This document shows positions 12,317 through 22,772 of a DNA stretch of 64,000 nt, piece after piece. The notes below the pieces were generated by a model, which saw only the letters and a list, made by a program, of their open reading frames with translations, ran no database searches and was not told the origin of the DNA. The DNA is from Parcubacteria group bacterium Gr01-1014_31 (GTDB lineage: Bacteria; Patescibacteriota; Patescibacteriia; Buchananbacterales; GWA2-38-13), in contig VMFR01000005.1 in assembly GCA_007376135.1 (NCBI GenBank), positions 4,141 to 68,140 of the forward strand, written 5' to 3'. Within the stretch, counting starts at the first letter, position 1. Every line of letters starts with the position of its first letter. Both the position numbers and the translations under genes were made by a program.

Positions 12317-12350
12317 CAAAACCGCCCCGCTTAAGCGGGGCGGTTTTGTT
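12317..12350. terminator. Bidirectional rho-independent terminator between convergent genes
   Basis: aaaaccgccccgcttaagcggggcggttttgtt. Confidence 0.7.
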
Positions 12351-12858
12351 ATTTGGAAACCTGGTAGTACAGCGGGGTGCCGTTCGGTCCGTTGCTGGAC
12401 GCCTGCAGCACGCCCGTGCCGGCATTGGGCGTGGGCGCGGTCAGCCCCGGCAGCGTGACCGTCTCTCTGGTGTTCTCAAAATTCGCGTACAGGACGCAGT
12501 GGCCGTCAGCGGTTGCCGTATAACGGTAGTTGGTCGCCGCATCCGTGCCGGTCTTGGGGTCTTTGGGCAGGTTGGTCAGCGCCGATGCGAATTGCGGGTA
12601 CTTGGTCCGCAACTCGGCGGCAACCTCCGCCAGGTCGTAATCGCCCGCTCCGGCATCGGGCAGATAGCACTCGCTGCTCATCAGCATCCGGCCCATCTGG
12701 CTCATGGTGTGCAGACGCTTGGTGTCCCGCGCCTTGCCCACGACGCCGCTGAGCGAAACGATGACCAGTGTCGCCAGTATCCCGACAATAGCTACGACGA
12801 CTAATAATTCAAGAAGGCTGAACCCGCTGCGAAAAGATCCTGTCCGCATACCCATCAA
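12349..12858 (-). CDS. Type IV pilin / pseudopilin with class III prepilin signal
   Basis: N-terminal RSGFSLLELLVVVAIVGILATLVI processing and methylation motif (G|FSLLE). Confidence 0.75.
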   Translation of the reverse strand: MMGMRTGSFRSGFSLLELLVVVAIVGILATLVIVSLSGVVGKARDTKRLHTMSQMGRMLMSSECYLPDAGAGDYDLAEVAAELRTKYPQFASALTNLPKDPKTGTDAATNYRYTATADGHCVLYANFENTRETVTLPGLTAPTPNAGTGVLQASSNGPNGTPLYYQVSK

Positions 12859-13170
12859 ACTATTCTACTATTCACCCCGTTAGAGATTCGCAAGTGAACG
12901 CTTGAGGCGATTCTTCAGATAACGTTTCCCCATGCCGGATTTGAGATACGTCTCGCGTGCCCGCGCATCATCTTCGTTCAGACACGCTTCGTAATACAGC
13001 AGCCGAAACTGGCCTCGATGTTTAGTTGATTGGACCGTTCGTTCATTATGGATCCTCAAGCGTTCACGCAGATCGCTCGTATAACCGGTGTACCAACGTT
13101 TGTCCTTCAAACTTTGTAGTACGTAAGTGTAGAACATGAATCTCTAACGGGGTGAGCGCGAATAGTACCA
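12859..13170. mobile_element. Small TIR-bounded element carrying a GIY-YIG endonuclease gene
   Basis: Left end ACTATTCTACTATTCACCCCGTTAGAGA (12859-12886). Right end TCTCTAACGGGGTGAGCGCGAATAGTACCA (13141-13170). This gives a 15-bp perfect inverted repeat plus an ACTATTC outer match, and the IR overlaps the gene's stop codon. Related copies lie at 13483-13516, 14877-14952 and 15589-15665. Confidence 0.6.
12880..13137 (-). CDS. GIY-YIG nuclease family protein, 85 aa
   Basis: YTYVLQSLKDKRWYTGYTSDLRERLRIHN is the GIY-YIG motif. Confidence 0.7.
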   Translation of the reverse strand: MFYTYVLQSLKDKRWYTGYTSDLRERLRIHNERTVQSTKHRGQFRLLYYEACLNEDDARARETYLKSGMGKRYLKNRLKRSLANL

Positions 13171-13527: not shown

Positions 13528-14862
13528 TTACAGCAGAGCGGACGGATGACGGCACTGCGCAAGGAACTCCCGCTGCACCTTTTTCCGTTCCAGCAGACCC
13601 ACCTCCCGGAGGAAGGCGGCATCCTGCGCCGACTGCTCGCGCAATTTTTTGTCCAGCACGATAACCTGCTCATTCACCTGCAGCGCCAGGTCGTTGAGCC
13701 CGACCAACTTGATGCCGGCCAGCGTTCGCACGCGCGAGAGCGCCACGTACCCCATCCCGTATTCGAAGGTCTTTCCCAGGTCTATTTCGGCGCAATCCAG
13801 GCTCATACCCTGGCTCTTGTGCACGGTAATGGCCCACGCCAGCCGAAGTGGTATTTGGATGATGGACGCCAGGACCTTGCCGTCGTCCTCAATTGCCCAC
13901 GTTTCCGTCTGGGCTTTTATCTCCTCCCCGCTCAGCGTGGTAACCATAGGAAAACCGTCGTCCTCGTCAAACCCCGTCACGGTGCCGATGGTGCCGTTCA
14001 CGTAGCCCCGGTTGAAATTGTTCCGGATGAACATCACCACCGCCCCGACCTTCAGCGGCAGCTCCTGGTGGGCCAAGCAACCCCGCTGCAGCTCTTCTAC
14101 AAGGTGCGGGATGCCAATCGCTCGCATCGTGAACACTTTTTCCTCGCCGGGCAGTTTGTCGAGTTGCGTGAGATTGTACGCGTCCACGTCCGAATTGTGC
14201 GTGTACAGCAGCGTCGGCCGCACGATGCCGGCAACGGGCTGGTGCAGGCGTTCGCGCAGAATGTCGCGCGTCTCATCGGACACCCGGTTTTCTCGGATAT
14301 CGTTGAGTACGCGCAAAAACCGCTCATCGGCCTGCCGGTACTGCTCTTCCAGATAGCACACGGCAACGTCGGCGTTCTGCCAAGCTGCCGACTCGACGGC
14401 AAACCGGGGATCCTGGCCGTCGCGGGGCACGGGCGGCAGCTGGAAAAAATCTCCGCAGAACACTATCTGCAAACCGCCGAACGGCCGCAGGTCCTGCCGT
14501 ATAGATTTGCAGATGAGGTCCACCAGGTCCAACCGCTTGGCGTTCAGCATGGAAATTTCGTCGATGACCAAAACGCTGGCATAGTGCACGCGCGGCCACA
14601 GCTGCTCTTTTTCCAGCACCCTTTTCAGCTGCGCGTCGTTCAGCGTTTCGTGGATGCCCATACCGATCCATGAGTGGATGGTTCGGCCGTTCAAGTGCGT
14701 CGCGGCAATGCCGGTCGGCGCGGTGACCCCGACGTTGACCTTGTGTTTCAGAAGATACTCGATGTACCGGTTCAGCAAAAAAGTCTTGCCGCTCCCCGCC
14801 GGGCCGGTGAGAAAGACATTCCTGCCCGTCTTGAGCATTTCGTACGCCTCAAACCGCCGCAT
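13528..14862 (-). CDS. PIF1/RecD-like ATP-dependent DNA helicase
   Basis: Walker A GPAGSGKT, DEISML, and the FCGDFFQLPPV motif of the Pif1 family. Confidence 0.75.
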   Translation of the reverse strand: MRRFEAYEMLKTGRNVFLTGPAGSGKTFLLNRYIEYLLKHKVNVGVTAPTGIAATHLNGRTIHSWIGMGIHETLNDAQLKRVLEKEQLWPRVHYASVLVIDEISMLNAKRLDLVDLICKSIRQDLRPFGGLQIVFCGDFFQLPPVPRDGQDPRFAVESAAWQNADVAVCYLEEQYRQADERFLRVLNDIRENRVSDETRDILRERLHQPVAGIVRPTLLYTHNSDVDAYNLTQLDKLPGEEKVFTMRAIGIPHLVEELQRGCLAHQELPLKVGAVVMFIRNNFNRGYVNGTIGTVTGFDEDDGFPMVTTLSGEEIKAQTETWAIEDDGKVLASIIQIPLRLAWAITVHKSQGMSLDCAEIDLGKTFEYGMGYVALSRVRTLAGIKLVGLNDLALQVNEQVIVLDKKLREQSAQDAAFLREVGLLERKKVQREFLAQCRHPSALL

Positions 14863-14959: not shown

Positions 14960-15160
14960 TTAGGGTTTGGGGTGAGTGTGCTGCACGCGGCCGACCACAC
15001 CGCTCTGCAAGCGGACCTTGATGCCGTGCGGATGGGTCGCGGAACTGGTCAAAATCTCCTGCACGATGCCGCGGGTCAGTTTCCCCGTCCGCTGGTCTTC
15101 TTTTTGGATAATGTCCACCTCCAAGCCTTCGACAATGTCTTCCCTATTTGGCACGGTCAT
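14960..15160 (-). CDS. YwbE (DUF2196) family small protein
   Basis: GLEVDIIQKEDQRTGKLTRGIVQEILTSSATHPHGIKVRL closely matches YwbE. Confidence 0.65.
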   Translation of the reverse strand: MTVPNREDIVEGLEVDIIQKEDQRTGKLTRGIVQEILTSSATHPHGIKVRLQSGVVGRVQHTHPKP

Positions 15161-15408
15161 ATTTTTCTAAAGAATCTAGAACGCTCAACAATATAGGCGG
15201 CAAGTTCTGGCTTGGTAAGACTTTCACCTAATTTTCTCTTGATCCTCAACCCAATCTGACGTATACGCTCCCTTGTTACACCCATTTCCTCACCGACTTC
15301 CTGGAGCGTCTTCCCTTCAAGTCGCAGGCTTAGGATTTTCTTTTCGCGAGGAGTGAGAAAATCTTCCTGCATTATCTTTTGCAAAACCGTGCTGTACTGC
15401 TGGGGCAT
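15157..15408 (-). CDS. Sigma-70 region-4-like HTH protein (small LuxR/sigma-factor C-terminal domain protein)
   Basis: [43 protein letters not shown]. Confidence 0.55.
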   Translation of the reverse strand: MPQQYSTVLQKIMQEDFLTPREKKILSLRLEGKTLQEVGEEMGVTRERIRQIGLRIKRKLGESLTKPELAAYIVERSRFFRKI

Positions 15409-15459
15409 AACTGTACTTATTTCTCCGTCATTGATGTGAGAAATACTGAATATAATTTA

Positions 15460-15531
15460 CGCCCTCGGCAGGACTTGAACCTGCAAATCCTCGTTAGAAC
15501 CGAGGCAGTTTATCCGTTAGCTTACGAGGGC
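15460..15531 (-). tRNA. tRNA-Arg (anticodon TCT)
   Basis: Hand-folded from sequence. Acceptor GCCCTCG/CGAGGGC. Anticodon stem CCTCG/CGAGG with loop GTTCTAA. T-arm GCAGG-TTCAAGT-CCTGC. Discriminator G. No CCA encoded. Confidence 0.75.
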
Positions 15532-15588
15532 ATGATTCCGACCCAGCACTGCCCCCTTCTCTTCTGCGGTGTAAACATAATCCCTGGA

Positions 15589-15665
15589 AACTATTCCCCT
15601 ATTTACCCCGCTGATAAGCGGGGTTCGCGCTTGACCCGCCGTTGGTAGTGGCGAATTAGAGAATG
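15589..15665. repeat. Degenerate copy of the TIR element family
   Basis: ACTATTCCCCTATTTACCCCGCTGATAAGCGGGGTTCGCGCTTGACCCGCCGTTGGTAGTGGCGAATTAGAG aligns with the 14877-14952 copy. Confidence 0.45.
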
Positions 15666-15673
15666 GGTTGAGT

Positions 15674-16474
15674 TTAGTAGAAGGTCATGTCGGGGTCGAA
15701 CTGACGGAGTTTCTTTGGCATGACGTCGTCGAGGTGATCCAGATCTTCGGGTACCAGCTCGATGAGCGGCAGTTTATATTTTGCGTACAGCGCTTGTTTG
15801 ATCGCCTTGCGCTTCAAGTAATCGGGCTTATCGTTCATGCCCCAAAATTCCACATACACACCCATCCGTTTCGTCGGCAACGGGATCAAAAAATCACACA
15901 CCAACGGTTCGGCCACCGGCACCCGTCGCTCATACCCATGCGGAATCAAATTGTGGTACAGCCAGTTGTCGATCGTTACCTCGGCGAAACTCCGAACATA
16001 GTGGCCGTCATCGGTGAATTTTTCGGGGTGGAACTCGTCACTGAAACGGAAATCGTGCTCCCAGGAGGTTTCGACATGATACTTCCCAAACGTCCGTTCG
16101 ACGGCCGCAACTTCCGCTGGCGTAAGCACCACCGGCGGGTAGTAACCTGTTTTCACTTTCTGAAAATTCAGCGCGCCTTTCAGCTGGAGACGGGTTAGTT
16201 GATAACGCCGGATTTTCCAAATCACACGCACCTGCTGCGAAAATTTTCCACCCCACGCCTCTGGAACTATATTGCCCTGCACCGTACCCAGCGCACGGAA
16301 CGTGCCGAACAGCCGCTCGGACATCAAATTGTACAGGTAGACAAAATCACCCTCGAGCAACTCCGCTAGCTGTTTCGCATGGATTGGCTTCTCTCCAAAC
16401 AACATCCGCTGGAAACACTCGTCCTGTGTGACATTAGTACAACGGAAAATATAGCCTTTGGGTGTGGACGGCAT
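15674..16474 (-). CDS. DCD (PUA-like/EVE-related) domain protein with an uncharacterized C-terminal domain
   Basis: PKGYIFRCTNVTQDECFQRMLFGEKP matches the DCD-domain N-terminal signature. Begins 14 bp after the MmeI-like stop. AT-rich. Internal Met taken as the start. Confidence 0.5.
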   Translation of the reverse strand: MPSTPKGYIFRCTNVTQDECFQRMLFGEKPIHAKQLAELLEGDFVYLYNLMSERLFGTFRALGTVQGNIVPEAWGGKFSQQVRVIWKIRRYQLTRLQLKGALNFQKVKTGYYPPVVLTPAEVAAVERTFGKYHVETSWEHDFRFSDEFHPEKFTDDGHYVRSFAEVTIDNWLYHNLIPHGYERRVPVAEPLVCDFLIPLPTKRMGVYVEFWGMNDKPDYLKRKAIKQALYAKYKLPLIELVPEDLDHLDDVMPKKLRQFDPDMTFY

Positions 16475-16487
16475 AAAAACAGCAAAA

Positions 16488-19298
16488 CTATGAAATCGTA
16501 CGGCGCGGCGAGGGTCTTTTCGTTGGTTTACTCTTACTTCCTGGATGTTCTTCTTTCCCGAGATACGCCTTGTACAGCCCAAACAAAAACTCTAACCGTT
16601 CGGGTTCGGTTTTGAAATCCCGCTTGCCGTAACATGCGTCAACCGCTCTGTCGAGGTTGTGGTGAGCATCGAGCAGCTCTTTTGGCATGGTGTTAGGATC
16701 ATAGAGATCGGCCAAAGTTGAACTGGTAAACTTTGCACGAGCATCAAGCACTGCCTGGGCTGCATTCTCAACAGCTTCTTTCTTATCCATCAATGGATTC
16801 TCCGGCCAAGGAAAGCTGTTGTAAACGATATCCTTCGAGTAACGGTAATCAGATTTTAGACGCCCTGCCACAGTACGCATCCAGGCCATGTGCATCCTAC
16901 TTTCCAATACTCCGAAATGGTAAAGACCCGCGCCAGAAACAATAAAAACTGCATCGCCTGCCAACGTATCTTTCCCCATAAAACCTATGGGGATATATTG
17001 GCGACGCTCGGAAGATACTTTTGGAATGACAAGGTAATCCCCATCTGGAATATTCTCAACATGGAAATGCGTTGGTTTTTCGGCCAGCCTTCGCGTTGGT
17101 TCACTTTTACTAAGGGCACGATATTGCCTTACGGCATTAATCCGTCGCATTACCTCAGGCAAGGAACGGATCTCATCTGGCCGTGCGTCACCTACCCATA
17201 GGCACCAGCGCTCAATCCCGTTAAGGAATTCTTCCGAGCCAATCCAACGTTTAAAGAATTTCTCCGCGCGTGGCTCTAAATGTAAAAACTTTAATTTTTC
17301 GGCCGCCGAGAAAAGATACATCCCTCCATCTATGGGCTTATTCCCAATTCCGATTTCTGGAATAATGCCCAAAGGTGCACGACGCCTCTCAAGAAAAACA
17401 TCAGGTGCGTCGACGAGATATGGATTAATATGAGAGGCGATAATCTCGTGTGGCTCGCCACGAATATCTTCGTATTCATATATCTTGAGAGTTTCGCCGG
17501 GCTGGCACCCAAAACCTATCACAACACAATACACAGCGGCTTTCCCCGGCGCCTCATTCGTCCACTTGAAAGTGCGATGTGCAAAATTAATATGGACCCT
17601 GTATCTCCCCATCATTTCATGCCATAGAATTCCTACCTGTTCTCCTTGAGTGATTGAATTAGTAGACACAAACGCACAGCTAATCGCGGTACCTTGAATG
17701 TATTGAGCTGCTTTGAGGTACCAACCTGAAACATAATCTAATACGCCACCTCCACTCTTATCACCAAACAACGAAACGATTTCCGCTCGTTGTTCATCAG
17801 CCATAACCTTCGAGCCAATAAACGGTGGGTTACCGACTATGTAGGTAAGTTTTTCCTCGGATACAAGTAATCGCCAGTCAATCTTCAGTGCGTTCCCCTG
17901 CATAATATGTGGCTGCTCAATGAGTGGAAGTTTACGGAGAGGCTCACCAAAGTAATCACCTAGTTGAACGTTTGTCATATGATCAGTCAACCAAAGTGAT
18001 AGCTGCGCAATCTGCGACGGGAATGATTCAAGTTCAATCCCAAACATCCTCTCGACGGAAAGTTTCGAAAGTTTCGATAAATCAATTTCCATCAGTAATA
18101 CACCCTGCCCGGCATCTACCCTAGCTGTGCGATCTTTATGCAATCGTTTAATTATCTCTAACTCAATTCTGCGTAGTTCACGATACGCGATGACAAGAAA
18201 GTTTCCACAGCCGCAAGCAGGATCAAGTAACGTAATTTTGGCTAACTTTTCCCATAAGGTGTTAAGCTTAGTAGTATTATTACCTACTGTCCTCAGTTCC
18301 CGCTCTAAATCATCTAGGAACAAACCACTTAGTACCTTAAGGATATTCTTCTCTGAGGTGTAGTGTGCACCTAAGTCATGGCGAGCTCGATCATCCATGA
18401 CCGATTGGAACATGGACCCGAATATCGCAGGCGAAATAACTGACCAATCAAATTGTACCGCCGCGATGATTGCGTCTCGGATGCCACGAGTGCCGAAGAG
18501 TGCGGGCAGCGGGGCGGCAAAAAGTCCACCATTAACGTATTCTAATGATGCAAGATCCTCATCAAAGTTTGTCTGCCGCTGGGCCGGCGGTGTATTTAGT
18601 ATTTGAAAAATTAGGCTTAGATGTGCACCAATATCTGAGCCGTCTTCTTTCGTTCTTTCTTCAAGGTAGTTACGGAAAAAATCACTATTAAAAATTCCGG
18701 TGTCATCGGCAAAGAAACAAAACACCAAGCGCGTCAGGAGCTTATCAATGGCCTCCCGGGGGTAATTCGTGATACGGATGGCTTCGTATAACTTTCCGAT
18801 GGCTTGAACCGCCTTAACACTAATGGGGTTTTCTTCACGATATGTCCGAACCCGAAATCCAGGAATGAAACTAAACAGCTTGATCTTTTTGGGGAATTCT
18901 TTAAGCTCGAATTCCTCCTGAAAAACCCCGCCGTCGGCCTCCAGATCATAAAACCGAATTCGAGCATAGTCCGTTACAACGATGTAACGAGGGCGATCAA
19001 CCTCTGGGAGCGCATCAAAATACGATCCTGCCTGTTGGTACGCGCTGTCTAAATTTTTACCGCCGCTTTTGTGTTCAACTATCAACGTGCCAGGCCAGAA
19101 TAAATCGATGAATCCACGATGGCGCTCACCGATGAGATTTACTTTTTCCTGATATCGGGCAACTGTGCGTCGTCGAATTCCGTATACCTCAAAAAACTCA
19201 TTCCAAAAAGACTGGTACTCACCGACTTCACTAGTCTGCCCCGCCCATTCACGGGCGAACGCGACTGCCTGGGCTCGTATTTCATTCCAATTCAGCAT
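16488..19298 (-). CDS. MmeI-family Type IIL restriction-modification enzyme (fused endonuclease, gamma-class N6-adenine methyltransferase and target-recognition domain)
   Basis: Collinear similarity to MmeI along its length: WNEIR, FFEVYGI, GFIDLFWPG, PRYIVVTDY, DPACGCGNFLVIAYRELR, GNPPFIG, CAFVSTNSITQGEQV, INFAHRTFKWTNEAPGKAAVYCVVIGFG, RWCLW, RQYIPIGF, RYRYSKDIVYNSFPW, DLYDPNTMPKELLDAHHNLDRAVD. 936 aa; MmeI is about 919 aa. Confidence 0.85.
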   Translation of the reverse strand: MLNWNEIRAQAVAFAREWAGQTSEVGEYQSFWNEFFEVYGIRRRTVARYQEKVNLIGERHRGFIDLFWPGTLIVEHKSGGKNLDSAYQQAGSYFDALPEVDRPRYIVVTDYARIRFYDLEADGGVFQEEFELKEFPKKIKLFSFIPGFRVRTYREENPISVKAVQAIGKLYEAIRITNYPREAIDKLLTRLVFCFFADDTGIFNSDFFRNYLEERTKEDGSDIGAHLSLIFQILNTPPAQRQTNFDEDLASLEYVNGGLFAAPLPALFGTRGIRDAIIAAVQFDWSVISPAIFGSMFQSVMDDRARHDLGAHYTSEKNILKVLSGLFLDDLERELRTVGNNTTKLNTLWEKLAKITLLDPACGCGNFLVIAYRELRRIELEIIKRLHKDRTARVDAGQGVLLMEIDLSKLSKLSVERMFGIELESFPSQIAQLSLWLTDHMTNVQLGDYFGEPLRKLPLIEQPHIMQGNALKIDWRLLVSEEKLTYIVGNPPFIGSKVMADEQRAEIVSLFGDKSGGGVLDYVSGWYLKAAQYIQGTAISCAFVSTNSITQGEQVGILWHEMMGRYRVHINFAHRTFKWTNEAPGKAAVYCVVIGFGCQPGETLKIYEYEDIRGEPHEIIASHINPYLVDAPDVFLERRRAPLGIIPEIGIGNKPIDGGMYLFSAAEKLKFLHLEPRAEKFFKRWIGSEEFLNGIERWCLWVGDARPDEIRSLPEVMRRINAVRQYRALSKSEPTRRLAEKPTHFHVENIPDGDYLVIPKVSSERRQYIPIGFMGKDTLAGDAVFIVSGAGLYHFGVLESRMHMAWMRTVAGRLKSDYRYSKDIVYNSFPWPENPLMDKKEAVENAAQAVLDARAKFTSSTLADLYDPNTMPKELLDAHHNLDRAVDACYGKRDFKTEPERLEFLFGLYKAYLGKEEHPGSKSKPTKRPSPRRTIS

Positions 19299-19365
19299 GG
19301 TTCGGAGTCGAGTAAATCATTCAAGCTTTTTTAATGACTAACAATTCTCCAGCATTCCAGTGTGT

Positions 19366-19400
19366 CAATTTTCCCACCATTGGGCCAAAAAGTCAAAAAC
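19366..19400 (-). promoter_or_regulatory. Promoter-like motif copy A upstream of the MmeI-like gene
   Basis: On the minus strand: TTGACT-TTTTGGCCCAATGGTGG-GAAAAT. Near-identical copies lie at 22496-22530 and 25783-25815. Confidence 0.45.
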
Positions 19401-19429
19401 AAACGGGGCTATTAGCCTTTCTTCAAAGA

Positions 19430-19460
19430 ACAAAAAAACGCCAGCATGAGGGCTGGCGAT
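19430..19460 (-). terminator. Rho-independent terminator on the minus strand, following the PRTase-like gene
   Basis: Minus strand: gccagccctcatgctggc followed by ttttttt. Confidence 0.55.
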
Positions 19461-19718
19461 TCCTCTTAAGAGCTCATACTAGAAGATTTCAAATGCAACG
19501 CGTCAGCTATTTGAATTTACAATTCACATAGATACCTTTTAATAGAGCCCGCACTTTTATCTTAGCACTACTCAGCTTAGTAGGCCAGAATAGTATCAAG
19601 GTATTCGATAACGGCTGTAGCTTAGGCCAGTCCACTATTGTGGCGCTTTTTAGAAAACTTCCGCCGTTCTTTAGTGAACAGAAATTTTATGGTGCGCATT
19701 TCTTAATCGCACACTCCT

Positions 19719-20579
19719 TTACCCGCGGACTAGATCAGTAATGCGTGGAAAAATGCCAAATTTACTATCCTGTCCCACGTTGCCCCTGAAAATGCTAGGC
19801 ACGCCATTAGGTGTATTCCTATAAAAAACTACCATAGAGGCAAGGCCTCTATAACCCAATGGAGCCCCCCGATCTCCCTCCCTGCAATAACCAACCAGCC
19901 TCTCTCTTTCTACATCATCAAGAATTATACTATCAGGGTGCAATGGTCGATCATTCTTATCGTGGATATAATCACAGACGATTTCGACGCCTACTTTAGT
20001 AATTGCAGCGAAGGCTTCGCGACAAATGCAAGGCAAGAGAAAAAATTCAGAAAACTGACCTATCAAAGGAACTTCTTTTGCGACATAATTTCTTGAATTT
20101 AAAAATTGATCACCAGTCCCCGAAAAATCATCAACATATATAATAGCGCCACTTCCTAGGCTGATTGTCGTCTTGATGAGCTCAAGTAAGTTTTGACAAT
20201 CGATAATATGCACGCGCTTTCGTTCTAGATTAGCTTTATCGCGGAGTAAGTTAAGCATCAAGTGGCTACTACTTGCTGGCTTGTCCACGGTCACATATAT
20301 AACTTTTTCTAATGCTACCCCTCGACTTTGTAATTTAGCTAGTAACTTTCCATTGTGTTTGACGAGGACATCTTCCGTCTTTTGTTCCGAATAATACCGG
20401 ATATGACTCAACAAGGACAAAATTAGATGGTGATCAGTTTTAGGAAATTGATCGAGCCAACTAAGAACTAATTGCGGGTGGACTTTTTGAGGGTGGTAAT
20501 CCTTAACTCGCCTACAAAAGTGCAGAATCCTCAAGTAATCTAAGGGATGCAACATCGCCCATGATAAATTATTCATCAT
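19719..20579 (-). CDS. Phosphoribosyltransferase (PRTase)-like domain protein
   Basis: AIIYVDDFSGTGDQF resembles the PRPP-binding loop (hhhhDDhxxTG). AT-rich. Start uncertain; overlaps the upstream gene's end. Confidence 0.4.
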   Translation of the reverse strand: MMNNLSWAMLHPLDYLRILHFCRRVKDYHPQKVHPQLVLSWLDQFPKTDHHLILSLLSHIRYYSEQKTEDVLVKHNGKLLAKLQSRGVALEKVIYVTVDKPASSSHLMLNLLRDKANLERKRVHIIDCQNLLELIKTTISLGSGAIIYVDDFSGTGDQFLNSRNYVAKEVPLIGQFSEFFLLPCICREAFAAITKVGVEIVCDYIHDKNDRPLHPDSIILDDVERERLVGYCREGDRGAPLGYRGLASMVVFYRNTPNGVPSIFRGNVGQDSKFGIFPRITDLVRG

Positions 20580-21576
20580 CTGTCGGGGTGCCATCCTCCA
20601 TTTTCGCAAGCAGATTTGTAATATAGACCTGCACACCCCTCACGGCCCTCACAAAATCTTTATTAACCTCGCTTGTTAGCTGAGATTCCAATCCCCTTAA
20701 CTTTTCTACAAGATCATTACAAGCGGTAATTGCTGTTGTAATATTTCGAGGTGGCAAAAAAATATCAAAAGTATCACGAGTTTCTAGCTCTATGTGGTTC
20801 ACGTATTCTTTTAACTTTGATTTAAATTCTTTCTCCCGGTTCTGTTCTTGGGCTTTTGCCGATGCTTCAATTATCCTTCGGAAATGAATTACGCTTACGA
20901 TCTTCCCTGATTTGTATTTATCAACAAGCCTTTGAATCAAAACTTCTCTGCCAAGTTCCCTAAATAATCCTGGTAGTTTATCCTCATAAATCTTAATGAC
21001 CGGGTAGGCCTCAATCCAAAAATTCGAAGCCACTCGTCTATCGGGCTCTGACTCTAGAGACAAAGCCTGAAACTTTTCCGGAAAGCTAAGTAATATTTTG
21101 CAACGCTCCACCTGCATCTCACTTAAACCCGTAAGATCAGATATCTTTTTATTATCGTCTTCGTGCAGCTCTTCAATGATGGTTTTCAGACTAATCGCAG
21201 TTGGCATTAGCTCCCATTGTTGTCTAAAGTTATGAATCGAAAACATGTAAAGCAGGCCGGCAATTTTTGTCGGTGGCTCAACAATATTAGCGGGTATAGT
21301 AATCTCAAAACCATCATCAGCCAATTCCGCGCAACACCGAAACCGTCTCTCCCCATCTAAAATTGCATATTTTTCTTGTCCTTTAATTTTGTAAGCGGTG
21401 ATCGGTACAAGTACCCCATGTTGTTGGATACTTTCTTTTAATTCTCGTAAGGGCACGGGGTCGAATAACTTTCTGGGGTTATTTCGATTTGGTTTTATCT
21501 CGGTGACATGAAGATGCTTGAGTAGTCCGGTAGGAACAACTTCCGTAATAACTTTATGTTGTTTATTACTAGACAT
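20569..21576 (-). CDS. ParB/sulfiredoxin-like nuclease domain protein
   Basis: HVTEIKPNRNNPRKLFDPVPLRELKESIQQHGVLVPITAY...LDGERRFRCC is the ParB N-terminal domain with its GERR motif. Confidence 0.65.
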   Translation of the reverse strand: MSSNKQHKVITEVVPTGLLKHLHVTEIKPNRNNPRKLFDPVPLRELKESIQQHGVLVPITAYKIKGQEKYAILDGERRFRCCAELADDGFEITIPANIVEPPTKIAGLLYMFSIHNFRQQWELMPTAISLKTIIEELHEDDNKKISDLTGLSEMQVERCKILLSFPEKFQALSLESEPDRRVASNFWIEAYPVIKIYEDKLPGLFRELGREVLIQRLVDKYKSGKIVSVIHFRRIIEASAKAQEQNREKEFKSKLKEYVNHIELETRDTFDIFLPPRNITTAITACNDLVEKLRGLESQLTSEVNKDFVRAVRGVQVYITNLLAKMEDGTPTDDE

Positions 21577-21580
21577 TATT

Positions 21581-22387
21581 TTAAACCAATATGTTTGAAA
21601 TCAAAAATTCTCGAGCAGCTTTCCGATTAGAGGAGAACCCAGCTATGCTTCTCCTCACAGAAATTATTCTTTTATAAAATCCTTCCGAAAGCATTTTCGC
21701 CTCATTTGATTCTAAATAGCTAACCAAAAAAGGAATCCGCATGCGACTAAGCCTGCGCATCCATTTTCGTAATCTAATAAGCTTTTTGAAATCAAATTTA
21801 GAGCTATCATAGTCTGTAAAAATGTTTTTGTTATGGACACTGAAAGGCGGATCCATATAGACAAAATCTCCTTTCCGAACGTAACGAAGTGTTTCATCAA
21901 AATCAGCAGCTAAGAGATGTGCCCTCTTCAAAAGCTTAGAAGAACGAGAAAAGACAAGCTCGCTCGGGATGCTGCCAGTTTTGCCGTAAGGCACATTAAA
22001 TTGGCCTGATTGATTTGTTCTATATAAACCATTGAAACAAAAACGATTGAGATACACAAAACGAGCCGCCCTTACCAATGGGTTGTTGATTTTTTTTGAA
22101 TCAAGAGACCTTAGCGAGTAATATGTCTGCTTAGATTGATCTAGCTCTTCTAATATAGCCAAGACTCCTTTCCAATCTTTTTTTATCTGCCTATAGGTAG
22201 CTATCAACTCAAGATTAATATCAGCGAGTAGGGCCTCTTTTGGGGCTACATTAAAAAAGAGGCACGCAGATCCGGCGAACGGTTCCACATACCGCTTACT
22301 TTGACTTGCGCGCCAATAACTGGAAAGTAACGGTACTAACTGCCTCTTGCTGCCAGCCCAACGTAAAATTGTATAATTAGCTGCCAT
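21581..22387 (-). CDS. Dam-family DNA N6-adenine methyltransferase
   Basis: LRWAGSKRQLVPLL...YVEPFAGSACLFF (AdoMet-binding motif I) and DPPF (motif IV). Confidence 0.8.
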   Translation of the reverse strand: MAANYTILRWAGSKRQLVPLLSSYWRASQSKRYVEPFAGSACLFFNVAPKEALLADINLELIATYRQIKKDWKGVLAILEELDQSKQTYYSLRSLDSKKINNPLVRAARFVYLNRFCFNGLYRTNQSGQFNVPYGKTGSIPSELVFSRSSKLLKRAHLLAADFDETLRYVRKGDFVYMDPPFSVHNKNIFTDYDSSKFDFKKLIRLRKWMRRLSRMRIPFLVSYLESNEAKMLSEGFYKRIISVRRSIAGFSSNRKAAREFLISNILV

Positions 22388-22495
22388 TCACAATTATTAT
22401 TATACGCCCAGTTCTTATTAAAAGAAAAAATTCCCTAATATGACTGACCGGAAGTGAAGTAAACCATATCGAAAAAAATAGTCTATTACCATTCC

Positions 22496-22530
22496 AATGG
22501 TCCCACCGTTAGGCCAAAAAGTCAAAACCT
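22496..22530 (-). promoter_or_regulatory. Promoter-like motif copy B upstream of dam
   Basis: Minus strand: TTGACT-TTTTGGCCTAACGGTGG-GACCAT. Confidence 0.4.
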
Positions 22531-22658
22531 CGATGCGCCCATTGGTAGGAAAGTAGGTAAAAAATCGAGGCCCCGCCTCGGGCGGGCAGGGAGCAAAGCG
22601 GTGGGTCCCGCCAACGGCGAGGTAGGCCATTTACCCGGTAATGACGGTTTGAGGTTAC

Positions 22659-22772
22659 TGGATTCCCGCCTTCGCGGGAATGACGGTTTTTTTGATTTCT
22701 GGACCTCCGCTACGGCGCGGGGATGGCGGTTTCTGGTTTTTTTCTGGACCCCCGCCTACGCGGGGTGACAAT
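22659..22772. repeat. About 2.7 tandem copies of a 41-45 bp hairpin unit
   Basis: TGGA(T/C)(T/C)CCCGC(C)T(T/A)CG(G)CG(C)GGG(A/G)ATG(A/G)CGGTTT..TTTTT. A related gggaatgacgatttgtttt lies near 25870. Confidence 0.5.

Follow-up and report, generated by a model that had tools for sequence, protein, structure and literature searches.

The gene considered here encodes a 266-aa protein directly behind the gene of an MmeI-family restriction-modification enzyme, in a window of 64,000 nt (the whole stretch of DNA that was analysed), and it raises the question of what such a protein acts on and whether it acts together with its neighbour. An earlier note had seen in it a candidate reader of modified bases, or a Type IV-like partner of the MmeI-like enzyme. 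To answer this question we considered the domains of the protein, the arrangement of the genes around it, the spread of its relatives and the known systems that share its layout.

The reading frame and its domains

The protein and its parts are placed as follows.

15674..16474, minus strand: DCD-nuclease fusion, complete open reading frame of 266 aa plus stop (ATG at 16474, stop codon 15674-15676)
16163..16462, minus strand: DCD domain, residues 5-104, PUA-like, YTH/EVE-like beta-barrel, predicted modified-base sensor (Pfam, AF2, Foldseek)
16028..16162, minus strand: inter-domain linker, residues 105-149, with helices 119-132 and 137-144 (AF2, pLDDT 64-93)
15695..16027, minus strand: PD-(D/E)xK-fold nuclease module, residues 150-260, Vsr/DUF559/DUF2726-like (PADLOC, conservation, AF2, Foldseek, BFVD)

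The identical 266-aa protein is annotated at NCBI in Parcubacteria group bacterium Gr01-1014_31. When open reading frames are read mechanically, a TTG at 16582 opens a longer frame of 302 aa; this start was rejected in favour of the ATG at 16474, because the N-termini of the homologues line up at the ATG and the longer frame would reach into the coding sequence of MmeI. Searches with the 266-aa protein found no family in PHROGs and nothing relevant in NCBIfam, and against the sequences of PDB chains the single protein gave only a chance match to the thioredoxin-like ResA (E 0.078), while a 67-sequence profile gave zero matches. No P-loop or further domain was detected in the protein.

An N-terminal DCD domain

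The N-terminal half matches the Pfam family PF10539 (Dev_Cell_Death) with 55.5 bits and E 6.6e-15, where the gathering threshold is 27.8 bits, and residues 7-104 correspond to profile positions 2-104 of 126; the DCD signature that had been read from the sequence in this half thus lies far beyond chance. DCD domains have three motif regions, an N-terminal G-x-I-F-x-C...EC...LFG, a central LFLYN-like and a C-terminal PAQV(R/K)-like one, and the translation shows GYIFRC..DEC..MLFG, FVYLYN and FSQQVRV. In the family alignment the conserved DCD columns are T16, E19, C20, L25, D43, F46, G57, F59, Q81 and V82.

The AF2 model of the full-length protein has a pLDDT of 90.3, with about 90-97 across the DCD half, in which the secondary structure is that of a PUA-like domain (strand 7-12, helix 14-23, strand 25-28, helix 30-36, strands 44-49, 54-61 and 80-94). 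A Foldseek search of this half against the PDB returned on top the YTH domains of Mmi1, Pho92, YTHDF2 and YTHDC2 together with the EVE proteins PH1033 and MJECL36 (E 2e-6 to 2e-4, probability 1.00, target-normalised TM 0.6-0.75), so the PUA-like fold that the earlier note expected is recovered, with YTH and EVE structures as its best structural matches. As modelled, the N-terminal half is a true DCD domain, a barrel of the PUA superfamily closest in fold to YTH and EVE, and by analogy with these it is predicted to be a modified-base reader. Literature searches turned up no biochemical results on DCD and no paper defining the ligand of any DCD domain.

A linker and a C-terminal PD-(D/E)xK fold

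Behind the DCD domain the earlier note had placed an uncharacterised region of ~180 aa. The region is there but measures about 160 aa, and consists of the linker and a compact core. Mean pairwise identity is lowest in the linker (0.28), and is 0.40 in the DCD domain and 0.54 in the nuclease; judged by these identities, evolution has been faster in the sensor domain than in the nuclease.

The AF2 model of the C-terminal domain (pLDDT 88.7, pTM 0.81) contains the alpha-beta-beta-beta-alpha-beta core of the fold, with helix 163-174, strands 180-184, 195-199 and 202-210, helix 217-232 and strand 237-240. Every informative Foldseek match of this half in the PDB was a PD-(D/E)xK nuclease, including Bax1, I-Bth0305I (target-normalised TM 0.71), NGO0050, DrdV, R2 RLE, TnsA, FAN1 and Hjc; viral cap-snatching endonucleases were among the weak, low-probability matches. 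Among viral structures (BFVD) there were 52 matches at E<=1e-3, annotated as DUF2726, DUF559, Vsr homing endonuclease or restriction endonuclease. According to the model, then, the C-terminal half is a PD-(D/E)xK nuclease fold of the Vsr/DUF559/DUF2726 type. The two halves of the protein are a PUA-like barrel and a nuclease fold, and no metabolic enzyme is found in the second.

Four residues, E165, D194, E209 and K226, are invariant or nearly so among 67-70 diverse homologues and are the candidate catalytic residues; for D194, E209 and E165 the conservation in these sequences is complete or reaches at least 90 %, and H158, H179, Y181 and E182 are further conserved positions of the nuclease. 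When placed on the structural elements read from the DSSP string of the model, E165 would lie in the first helix, D194 at the start of core strand 2 and E209 in core strand 3. The suggestion that VYVEFWG could be a degenerate nuclease motif is supported, as the invariant Glu209 of the third core strand falls within it. The lysine of the canonical (D/E)-x-K is missing from the motif, which reads E209-F-W211-G212 with W211 and G212 invariant, and which we take to resemble the E-x-D-G pattern of DUF559 and DUF2726. A possible substitute for the canonical lysine is K226, which is invariant and lies on the following helix.

No Pfam nuclease family (DUF559, DUF2726, Vsr, NERD and others) matched any of 67 members at E<=0.05. 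In PADLOC, residues 136-260 match positions 165-285 of the 289 positions of the PDC-S69 model (E 9e-37), and the nuclease module is also matched by HEAT_CxxC_PD-DEXK (E 1e-7) and by PDC-S68. Since only positions 165-285 of PDC-S69 are matched, the nuclease is common to both and the head is different.

The MmeI-like neighbour and a probable transcription unit

The following features surround the gene.

16488..19298, minus strand: MmeI-family Type IIG restriction-modification enzyme, 936 aa, upstream neighbour (Pfam, PADLOC)
16475..16487, minus strand: spacer of 13 nt, TTTTGCTGTTTTT, between the MmeI-like stop and the DCD-nuclease start (sequence)
19368..19396, minus strand: promoter-like site TTGACT-17-GAAAAT with TG, upstream of the MmeI-like gene (consensus match only)
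19439..19458, minus strand: terminator-like hairpin with T-run, closing the Dam/ParB/PRTase unit (consensus match only)
15606..15623, minus strand: GC hairpin CCCCGC-TTATCA-GCGGGG with no U-tract, about 50 nt past the DCD-nuclease stop (read from the sequence, unscored by the terminator scan)

The MmeI-like reading frame is complete and carries the full set of five MmeI Pfam domains (MmeI_N, MmeI_hel, MmeI_Mtase, MmeI_TRD and MmeI_C); the PADLOC model REase_MTase_IIG matches its product with E = 0. The earlier note had put the DCD-nuclease gene 14 bp after the MmeI-like stop, which agrees with the gap of 13 nt if it is counted start to start (stop codon 16488-16490). The spacer contains no Shine-Dalgarno-like sequence.

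The two genes are probably co-transcribed, as had been proposed, to judge from the short spacer, the lack of a terminator between them and the pair of terminator-like and promoter-like sites upstream of MmeI. The hairpin at 19439..19458 closes the Dam/ParB/PRTase unit and so would delimit that of MmeI and the DCD-nuclease, for which a promoter-like site was found only upstream of MmeI; this site sits in a 33-nt element with a second copy upstream of the Dam gene. The GC hairpin past the DCD-nuclease stop is a possible end of the unit.

The further proposal, that the protein is a functional partner of the MmeI-like enzyme, found no support, as the pairing occurs at one of 16 full-length homologue loci and no neighbour family recurs among them. 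In all four MmeI relatives at 66-67 % identity other genes lie downstream, none of them a DCD-nuclease. The GC3 of the DCD-nuclease and MmeI-like genes is 0.648 vs 0.443, a difference of 0.2 that points to different histories of the two. From these comparisons, a conserved two-gene system of MmeI and DCD-nuclease is not supported.

The Type IIG restriction-modification, PRTase-CE and Dam genes lie with the DCD-nuclease gene in a region of low GC, which is a horizontally acquired defence island. At the far end of the island no att-like direct repeat of the tRNA-Arg gene was found; what the repeat search yielded was the 33-nt element upstream of the two operons. A PIF1-type helicase (13528-14862) and the nuclease module both match the PDC-S68 model. 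A PDC-S68 split between these two genes was nevertheless rejected because the helicase match is a generic SF1 P-loop match, equal in strength to those of RecD-like models, its gene has a host-like GC of 0.60 and GC3 of 0.79, and a tRNA gene and two others separate it from the DCD gene.

A patchy family of stand-alone genes

We collected 239 proteins, among them 70 with a DCD domain and nuclease and 16 of the form DCD-DCD-nuclease. Proteins of the DCD-nuclease architecture are a real family, which is rare and occurs patchily in CPR bacteria, in archaea (Asgard and Bathyarchaeota) and in Ignavibacteria, Persephonella and Acidobacteria. The same nuclease module carries other heads, namely ANT/KilAC (25 members) and WH_AprA (13), and HTH, zinc-ribbon or HEAT in others. 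This module, which Pfam does not classify, comprises hundreds of clusters with several DNA-binding heads, and the interchangeability of the heads speaks for an effector that is directed at DNA and whose specificity domains can be swapped.

A DNA methyltransferase lies within 5 kb at four of the 16 full-length homologue loci, this locus included, and at none of the other 12. Across these loci no neighbour gene family recurs, and an all-against-all BLASTP of the neighbours revealed no conserved unannotated partner gene. By its distribution, the DCD-nuclease is a stand-alone gene. Many homologues are placed among housekeeping genes; a Ham1/ITPase gene comes just before the homologue at one locus (L050), RNase_T/ExoX genes likewise come just before it at two (L007 and L008), and RecO lies two genes upstream at another (L006).

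Comparison with known systems

Fusions of DCD with PD(D/E)XK domains were predicted in prokaryotes by Bell, Wolf and Koonin in 2020 as agents of modified-DNA restriction in which DCD is an EVE-like reader, and were described there as rare (PMC7641849). At the level of DCD and PD(D/E)XK, domain pair and predicted role are the same as in the present protein (PMC7641849). Their survey, in the passages that deal with DCD, places the domain mostly in archaea and hyperthermophilic bacteria, whereas this copy and many of its relatives belong to CPR/Patescibacteria and other mesophilic MAGs. Neither 'MmeI' nor 'Type IIG' occurs in the paper, so that it reports no adjacency like that of this locus, and its passages on DCD make no mention of the tandem DCD-DCD-nuclease forms collected here (PMC7641849).

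The closest layout among tested enzymes is that of VcaM4I and TspA15I (EVE-HNH) and YenY4I (PUA-sf-DUF3427-PD-(D/E)XK), which likewise consist of an N-terminal PUA sensor, a linker and a C-terminal nuclease with no NTPase domain, and which are stand-alone and usually away from methyltransferases, as are 12 of the 16 loci considered here (PMC6765204, PMC7897488). Experiments with these enzymes show a preference for 5mC/5hmC DNA and restriction of T4gt (PMC6765204, PMC7897488). They differ in that the sensor is EVE or SRA-like, not DCD, and the nuclease an HNH or DUF3883 domain, not a Vsr/DUF559/DUF2726-like PD-(D/E)xK fold that lacks the canonical lysine.

PDC-S69 of PADLOC shares the nuclease module, but the match does not extend over the full length and the N-terminal half differs; relatives of similar size (about 290-310 aa) have KilA-C/ANT or wH_AprA heads. 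The module is also the C-terminus of PDC-S68 and of HEAT_CxxC_PD-DEXK. A search of the literature returned no paper in which PDC-S69 or PDC-S68 is named, and its matches concerned PDC-S70 only.

The YTH-McrB of Thermococcus gammatolerans is an m6A-DNA-binding Type IV system (cited in PMC12707154 and PMC7641849), and thus uses a YTH-like PUA reader in restriction of modified DNA, as predicted here; in that system, as these sources cite it, the reader sits on a GTPase motor that needs a separate McrC, whereas here it is fused to the nuclease and there is no NTPase. The DCD proteins of plants (NRP, B2 and others; PF10539) have the homologous domain with its three motif regions (here MLFG, FVYLYN and FSQQVRV), but they are not joined to a nuclease, and their roles are in the signalling of stress and cell death.

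Proposed function and alternatives

By Pfam, PADLOC, AF2 and Foldseek the protein is a sensor-nuclease fusion without an NTPase. We hypothesize that it is a self-contained, NTP-independent, modification-dependent (Type IV-like) restriction endonuclease, an explanation that we rate somewhat above even. The DCD domain would recognise a modified base in DNA, probably by flipping it into a pocket like EVE, SRA and YTH domains, and the C-terminal Vsr/DUF559/DUF2726-type module would then cut the DNA nearby. The helical linker may hold the nuclease inactive until the sensor is engaged; in VcaM4I, 5mC is flipped into the EVE pocket and a linker helix auto-inhibits the enzyme (PMC7897488). The enzyme would work without a partner. 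Tested enzymes that join a PUA-superfamily domain to HNH or PD-(D/E)XK cleave 5mC/5hmC DNA, and Lutz et al. (2019) take the lack of a linked methyltransferase or neighbour in such fusions as a sign of modification dependence (PMC6765204). Placed in the low-GC island behind the MmeI-family Type IIG gene and presumably transcribed with it, the DCD-nuclease may complement it, so that the island would attack unmodified DNA through MmeI, and DNA modified to escape such enzymes through the DCD-nuclease. The island holds two adenine-N6 methylases, one MmeI-like and the other Dam, so a target such as modified cytosine, or else a hypermodified base, is likelier than m6A of the host type.

The same two methylases can be turned into an argument for a different trigger, in which the ligand of the DCD domain is a modified nucleotide in free form, for example m6-dAMP from a Dam/MmeI-methylated chromosome degraded by a phage, and the nuclease, once switched on by it, degrades DNA indiscriminately in an abortive infection. 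One PUA-like domain has been shown to sense m6-dAMP from Dam-methylated host DNA and to activate a fused effector, and its family is reported to occur both in nuclease fusions and in restriction-modification operons that contain N6-adenine methylases (bioRxiv 10.64898/2026.01.15.699771). Such sensing would lift the problem of self-toxicity that an m6A reader would face, and the methylases within 5 kb at four of 16 loci are of the Dam or N6/N4 type. Against it, 12 of the 16 loci have no methylase near, DCD belongs to a different branch of the superfamily from the PUA-Cal family and has no known nucleotide binding, and a nuclease module mostly found on classical DNA-binding heads fits cleavage directed by a sequence or mark better than allosteric activation; we regard this danger signal as unlikely. 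A dedicated accessory of MmeI, reading the hemimethylated m6A mark that MmeI leaves and serving second-strand cleavage or regulation, would suit the 13-nt spacer on the same strand, the uninterrupted unit with its promoter-like site and the m6A-binding YTH domains at the top of the fold matches. MmeI-family enzymes are, as is generally known, functional as single polypeptides, however, and the pairing is unique to this locus among the 16, is absent from the four MmeI relatives and joins genes of unequal GC3, which leaves such a role very improbable. If the DCD domain were to read a host adenine mark in either form (free m6-dAMP or a hemimethylated MmeI site) and so gate the Vsr-like nuclease, the restriction-modification methylase and the DCD-nuclease would make a 'methylome-as-alarm' pair, to which we give a small chance.

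Other alternatives concern the substrate. Vsr and Endonuclease V nick next to an aberrant base to start repair, and the DCD domain may similarly find a damaged or aberrant base for a Vsr-like nuclease to nick beside. This fits the nuclease fold, nearest to the Vsr/DUF559 branch with its true repair enzyme, and the many homologues among housekeeping genes, some just after nucleotide-sanitising or repair genes; but the very patchy and rare distribution is unlike that of a core repair function, no repair-gene neighbour recurs, the gene lies here in a horizontally acquired low-GC island beside a restriction-modification system, and the module matches defence-candidate models, so that a surveillance nuclease of this kind seems rather improbable. 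Least credible to us is a nuclease directed at RNA, in which the YTH-like DCD recognises a modified base of RNA, be it in tRNA or in transcripts of phage or host, and the PD-(D/E)xK module cuts the RNA. The sensor has its best structural matches in RNA m6A readers of eukaryotes, modified RNA is the predicted ligand of eukaryotic DCD domains (PMC7641849), some PD-(D/E)xK enzymes such as viral cap-snatching endonucleases cut RNA, and some Type IV-like systems are predicted to target it (PMC11090510); yet the cap-snatching matches are of low probability, the significant ones are DNA endonucleases and the other heads on the module are dsDNA-binding wH, HTH and KilA-C domains.

Significance

As a genomic finding the DCD-nuclease is not surprising, as its architecture and likely role are among the predictions of Bell, Wolf and Koonin from 2020 (PMC7641849). 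What the 266-aa protein offers is a simple read-out, in cleavage and phage restriction, for the base that a DCD domain recognises, together with the definition of the Pfam-unclassified nuclease module that underlies the PADLOC candidate PDC-S69. In plants, work on the part of DCD proteins in stress responses and cell death goes back a long time. The read-out would test the prediction of 2020 and bear on these plant proteins and, if the enzyme is specific, it could give a new reagent for mapping a DNA modification, as are MspJI, AbaSI and enzymes of the VcaM4I type. If the reading of a host mark were true, a ligand would be defined for the first time for a DCD domain, and with it a direct hypothesis for what the cell-death DCD proteins of plants sense.

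The DCD head

The gene was read from the window translation as follows:

15674-16474, minus strand: DCD-nuclease, ORF of 266 aa, ATG at 16474, stop codon at 15674-15676

The protein starts MPSTPKGYIFRCTNVTQDECFQRMLFGEKP, as the earlier note wrote, and an identical protein is annotated by NCBI as hypothetical in the MAG "Parcubacteria group bacterium Gr01-1014_31". A 302-aa ORF opening at TTG 16582 in the mechanical ORF list was ruled out, since all homologue N-termini align with ATG 16474.

Residues 7-104 match the DCD family of Pfam (PF10539; E 6.6e-15, 55.5 bits), well over the gathering score of 27.8, which bears out the DCD domain claimed by the earlier note. The full-length AlphaFold2 model, with an alignment of 70 sequences as input, has a mean pLDDT of 90.3, and values of 90-97 across the DCD domain. 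In a Foldseek comparison with the PDB, this half matched the YTH domains of Mmi1, Pho92, YTHDF2 and YTHDC2, some of them in complex with m6A RNA or m6A DNA, as well as the archaeal EVE proteins PH1033 and MJECL36 (E 2e-6 to 2e-4, target-normalised TM 0.6-0.75). The head is therefore a DCD domain with a PUA-like barrel, the fold that had been proposed for it.

The nuclease half

Residues 105-266 fall in no Pfam, NCBIfam or PHROG family, and PDB sequences gave no match. Among the PADLOC defence models, residues 136-260 match the C-terminus of PDC-S69 (E 9e-37) and that of PDC-S68, and also HEAT_CxxC_PD-DEXK (E 1e-7); the match to PDC-S69 is confined to the nuclease half. The homologues share the block DGHYVRS..E..IDNWLY...H.YE....DF.IP....YIEYWG....Y...K...Y, and E165, D194, E209, W211, G212, Y219 and K226 vary little or not at all (67-70 sequences).

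A separate model of residues 133-266 (pLDDT 88.7, pTM 0.81) has an alpha-beta-beta-beta-alpha-beta core. All of its informative Foldseek matches in the PDB are PD-(D/E)xK nucleases, among them Bax1 (E 3e-3), the homing endonuclease I-Bth0305I (target-normalised TM 0.71), NGO0050, DrdV, the R2 restriction-like endonuclease, TnsA, FAN1 and Hjc. Predicted viral structures gave 52 matches at E<=1e-3; the named ones are DUF2726, DUF559, Vsr-type group I intron homing endonucleases, "restriction endonuclease", TnsA and Holliday-junction resolvase. From these matches and the conserved block, VYVEFWGMNDK, suggested earlier as a possible nuclease motif, is therefore the third core strand, bearing the invariant Glu209; the C-terminal half has a nuclease fold, not that of a metabolic enzyme.

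The protein thus has the fold and the acidic residues of PD-(D/E)xK enzymes; it lacks the canonical lysine, the motif reading E-F-W, and falls in no named Pfam nuclease family. The motif is reminiscent of the E-x-D-G seen in DUF559 and DUF2726, and the invariant K226 of the next helix may stand in for the lysine.

Family and distribution

A word-indexed search returned 16 relatives, a profile search 95, and an exhaustive HMM search across 1.84 billion cluster representatives 8,534 matches at E<=1e-3 (406 at E<=1e-30). When 239 proteins were re-scanned with separate DCD and nuclease profiles, 70 had the DCD+nuclease architecture, 16 a tandem DCD-DCD-nuclease and 148 the nuclease behind another head. 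The heads found by a Pfam scan of 67 proteins with the nuclease module were KilA-C/ANT (25), WH_AprA (13), IF2_N-like (12), DCD (11), HVO_A0261_N (9), double zinc ribbon (5) and HTH or HEAT domains; given this diversity, the nuclease is a portable effector with swappable, mostly DNA-binding specificity domains. Mean identity within the DCD-nuclease family is 0.54 for the nuclease, 0.40 for the DCD and 0.28 for the linker. The hosts are CPR/Patescibacteria, Peribacteria, Saccharibacteria, Bathyarchaeota, Hodarchaeota, Ignavibacteria, Persephonella, Pyrinomonadaceae and Thermodesulfobacteriota, a patchy spread that points to horizontal transfer.

The tandem forms (L036:7998-9221 and 16 proteins such as P0096, P0104 and P0113) make up a sizeable subgroup, of about 380-435 aa with one of 561 aa, and two reader domains on a single nuclease might require a pair of modified bases or of spaced sites. 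P0016, distantly related to the nuclease module, bears a sigma70_r4/HTH head. The 291-aa Flavobacteriales protein P0042 carries the nuclease module under the NCBI name "glycerol kinase"; no kinase domain is recorded for this protein, and the name is therefore probably a propagated misannotation.

Genomic setting

The gene lies in a low-GC island encoding a small HTH protein, a tRNA, the DCD-nuclease, MmeI, PRTase-CE, ParB_N and a Dam methylase, most with a GC3 of 0.37-0.46 against about 0.75 in the flanks. Neither an integrase nor a tRNA-derived direct repeat was found at the island ends.

about 15150-22700: low-GC island, GC 0.39-0.50 against about 0.60 in the flanks
13528-14862, minus: PIF1/RecD-like helicase, host-like GC, about 0.8 kb outside the island
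15157-15408, minus: 83-aa sigma-70 region 4/LuxR-type HTH protein, GC 0.44
15459-15532: tRNA-Arg(TCT)
16488-19298, minus: MmeI-like protein, 936 aa, all five MmeI Pfam domains, full-length PADLOC Type IIG match
19396-19368: promoter-like site before MmeI, TTGACT-17-GAAAAT, consensus match
19458-19439: terminator-like hairpin after the PRTase gene, consensus match
19719-20636, minus: PRTase-CE phosphoribosyltransferase-like protein (PADLOC PRTase_III-A, E 1e-24; NCBIfam DS32_1 weakly)
20569-21576, minus: ParB_N-domain protein
21581-22387, minus: Dam-family D12 methylase

The earlier note had proposed co-transcription with MmeI. The close same-strand spacing stands, with 13 nt (16475-16487) between the MmeI-like stop codon and the ATG; consensus matching placed the hairpin after the PRTase gene, the promoter-like site before MmeI and no terminator-like element between MmeI and the DCD-nuclease, and a single MmeI + DCD-nuclease transcript would fit these consensus matches. 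No Shine-Dalgarno sequence precedes the DCD-nuclease, MmeI or Dam starts.

The partnership proposed for the two genes did not hold up. Among 16 distinct loci with full-length homologues, the window included, an MmeI-like neighbour occurs in the window only. L001/L011 has a convergent Type III Res/Mod pair one gene away, L006/L013 an N6_N4 methyltransferase immediately upstream, and L016 N6_N4-like and Dam-like methyltransferases within 5 kb, with an ISL3 transposase adjoining. Neighbours in the other 12 of the 16 are unrelated: poly(A) polymerase with Ham1, MoeA, PNPase, glycosyltransferases, an AMP-binding enzyme, IF3 with a PLD-like protein, GSDH with GST, DUF5677, RNase_T/ExoX, and TonB receptors with Tex; all-against-all BLASTP of the neighbours gave no recurrent family besides the DCD-nuclease itself. 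Conversely, none of four MmeI relatives (66-67% identity) is followed by a DCD-nuclease: downstream lie an NYN RNase, an unknown gene with a D12 methylase, a SocA/Panacea protein and an unknown gene. GC3 also differs (0.648 for the DCD-nuclease against 0.443 for MmeI-like; 0.37-0.39 in three genes further upstream, about 0.75 in flanking host genes). The two genes were thus acquired separately and adjoin each other locally, without forming a conserved two-gene system.

At L092:5001-10080 an MmeI relative (66% identity) has downstream of it an unknown 458-aa gene and then a D12 (Dam-type) methylase, which echoes the co-residence in the window and may reflect a recurrent association of the two families. 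The DCD-nuclease starts 5 nt past a Ham1/ITPase gene in Persephonella (L050:5637-7051) and 52 nt past an RNase_T/ExoX exonuclease gene in metagenomic contigs (L007:2910-4539 and the corresponding L008 stretch); neither link recurs in the other loci.

A 33-nt element (minus strand TTTTGACTTTTTGGCCyAAyGGTGGGAmmATTG) has two copies, 88% identical, at 19366-19398 and 22495-22527, about 70-140 nt upstream of the MmeI-like and Dam starts; it includes TTGACT-17-GAAAAT and may serve both island operons as a common promoter or operator, co-regulating them. Only the tRNA gene separates the DCD-nuclease from the gene of the 83-aa HTH protein; this protein might regulate island genes, and the repeat could be its operator. 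The tightly packed or overlapping Dam/ParB_N/PRTase-CE trio (19719-22387, minus), ending at the hairpin, resembles a candidate defence module of its own. The helicase matches the helicase part of PDC-S68, whose C-terminus is the nuclease module, a link we judged coincidental, the match being a generic SF1 one. Just outside the island, a stand-alone 85-aa GIY-YIG protein (12880-13137) and a type IV pilin-like protein (12349-12858) that has an N-terminal methylation motif, both minus, appear unrelated to the DCD-nuclease.

Proposed function

The best-supported reading, which we hold to be somewhat probable, is a stand-alone, modification-dependent restriction endonuclease: the protein would act alone and without NTP, and cleavage would depend on DNA modification. 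By function it would belong with the sensor-nuclease Type IV enzymes, and it parallels PUA-superfamily-nuclease fusions studied by experiment. TspA15I, VcaM4I and YenY4I act preferentially on 5mC/5hmC DNA and restrict T4gt, and fusion genes of this type are rarely near methyltransferases (PMC6765204); VcaM4I flips 5mC into the EVE pocket and is auto-inhibited by a linker helix (PMC7897488). Bell, Wolf and Koonin list fusions of DCD to PD(D/E)XK nucleases, McrB and methyltransferases and infer the same role (PMC7641849). Because the island encodes two adenine-N6 methylases, cutting at host-type m6A would be self-destructive, and we tentatively favour a modified cytosine or a hypermodified base as target.

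Methylases lie nearby in 4 of the 16 loci, which, like the coexistence with Dam and MmeI, would be explained if the protein sensed methylome-derived nucleotides after the model of PUA-Cal-HAD, a system that binds m6-dAMP (bioRxiv 10.64898/2026.01.15.699771); we regard this as unlikely. Similarly improbable is a repair nuclease for damaged bases, for which a fold like that of Vsr and neighbours that are now and then Ham1, ExoX or RecO speak, but to which the patchy distribution and the island context are opposed. That the protein is a true accessory of MmeI is very doubtful, and an RNA-directed nuclease seems hardly credible.

The DCD-PD(D/E)XK architecture and its predicted role were already published in 2020 (PMC7641849). 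New here are the definition of the nuclease module as a large family unclassified by Pfam, the existence of tandem DCD forms and the prominence of the family in CPR bacteria. The main value is practical: the DCD-nuclease is a compact test system for the ligand of DCD domains.
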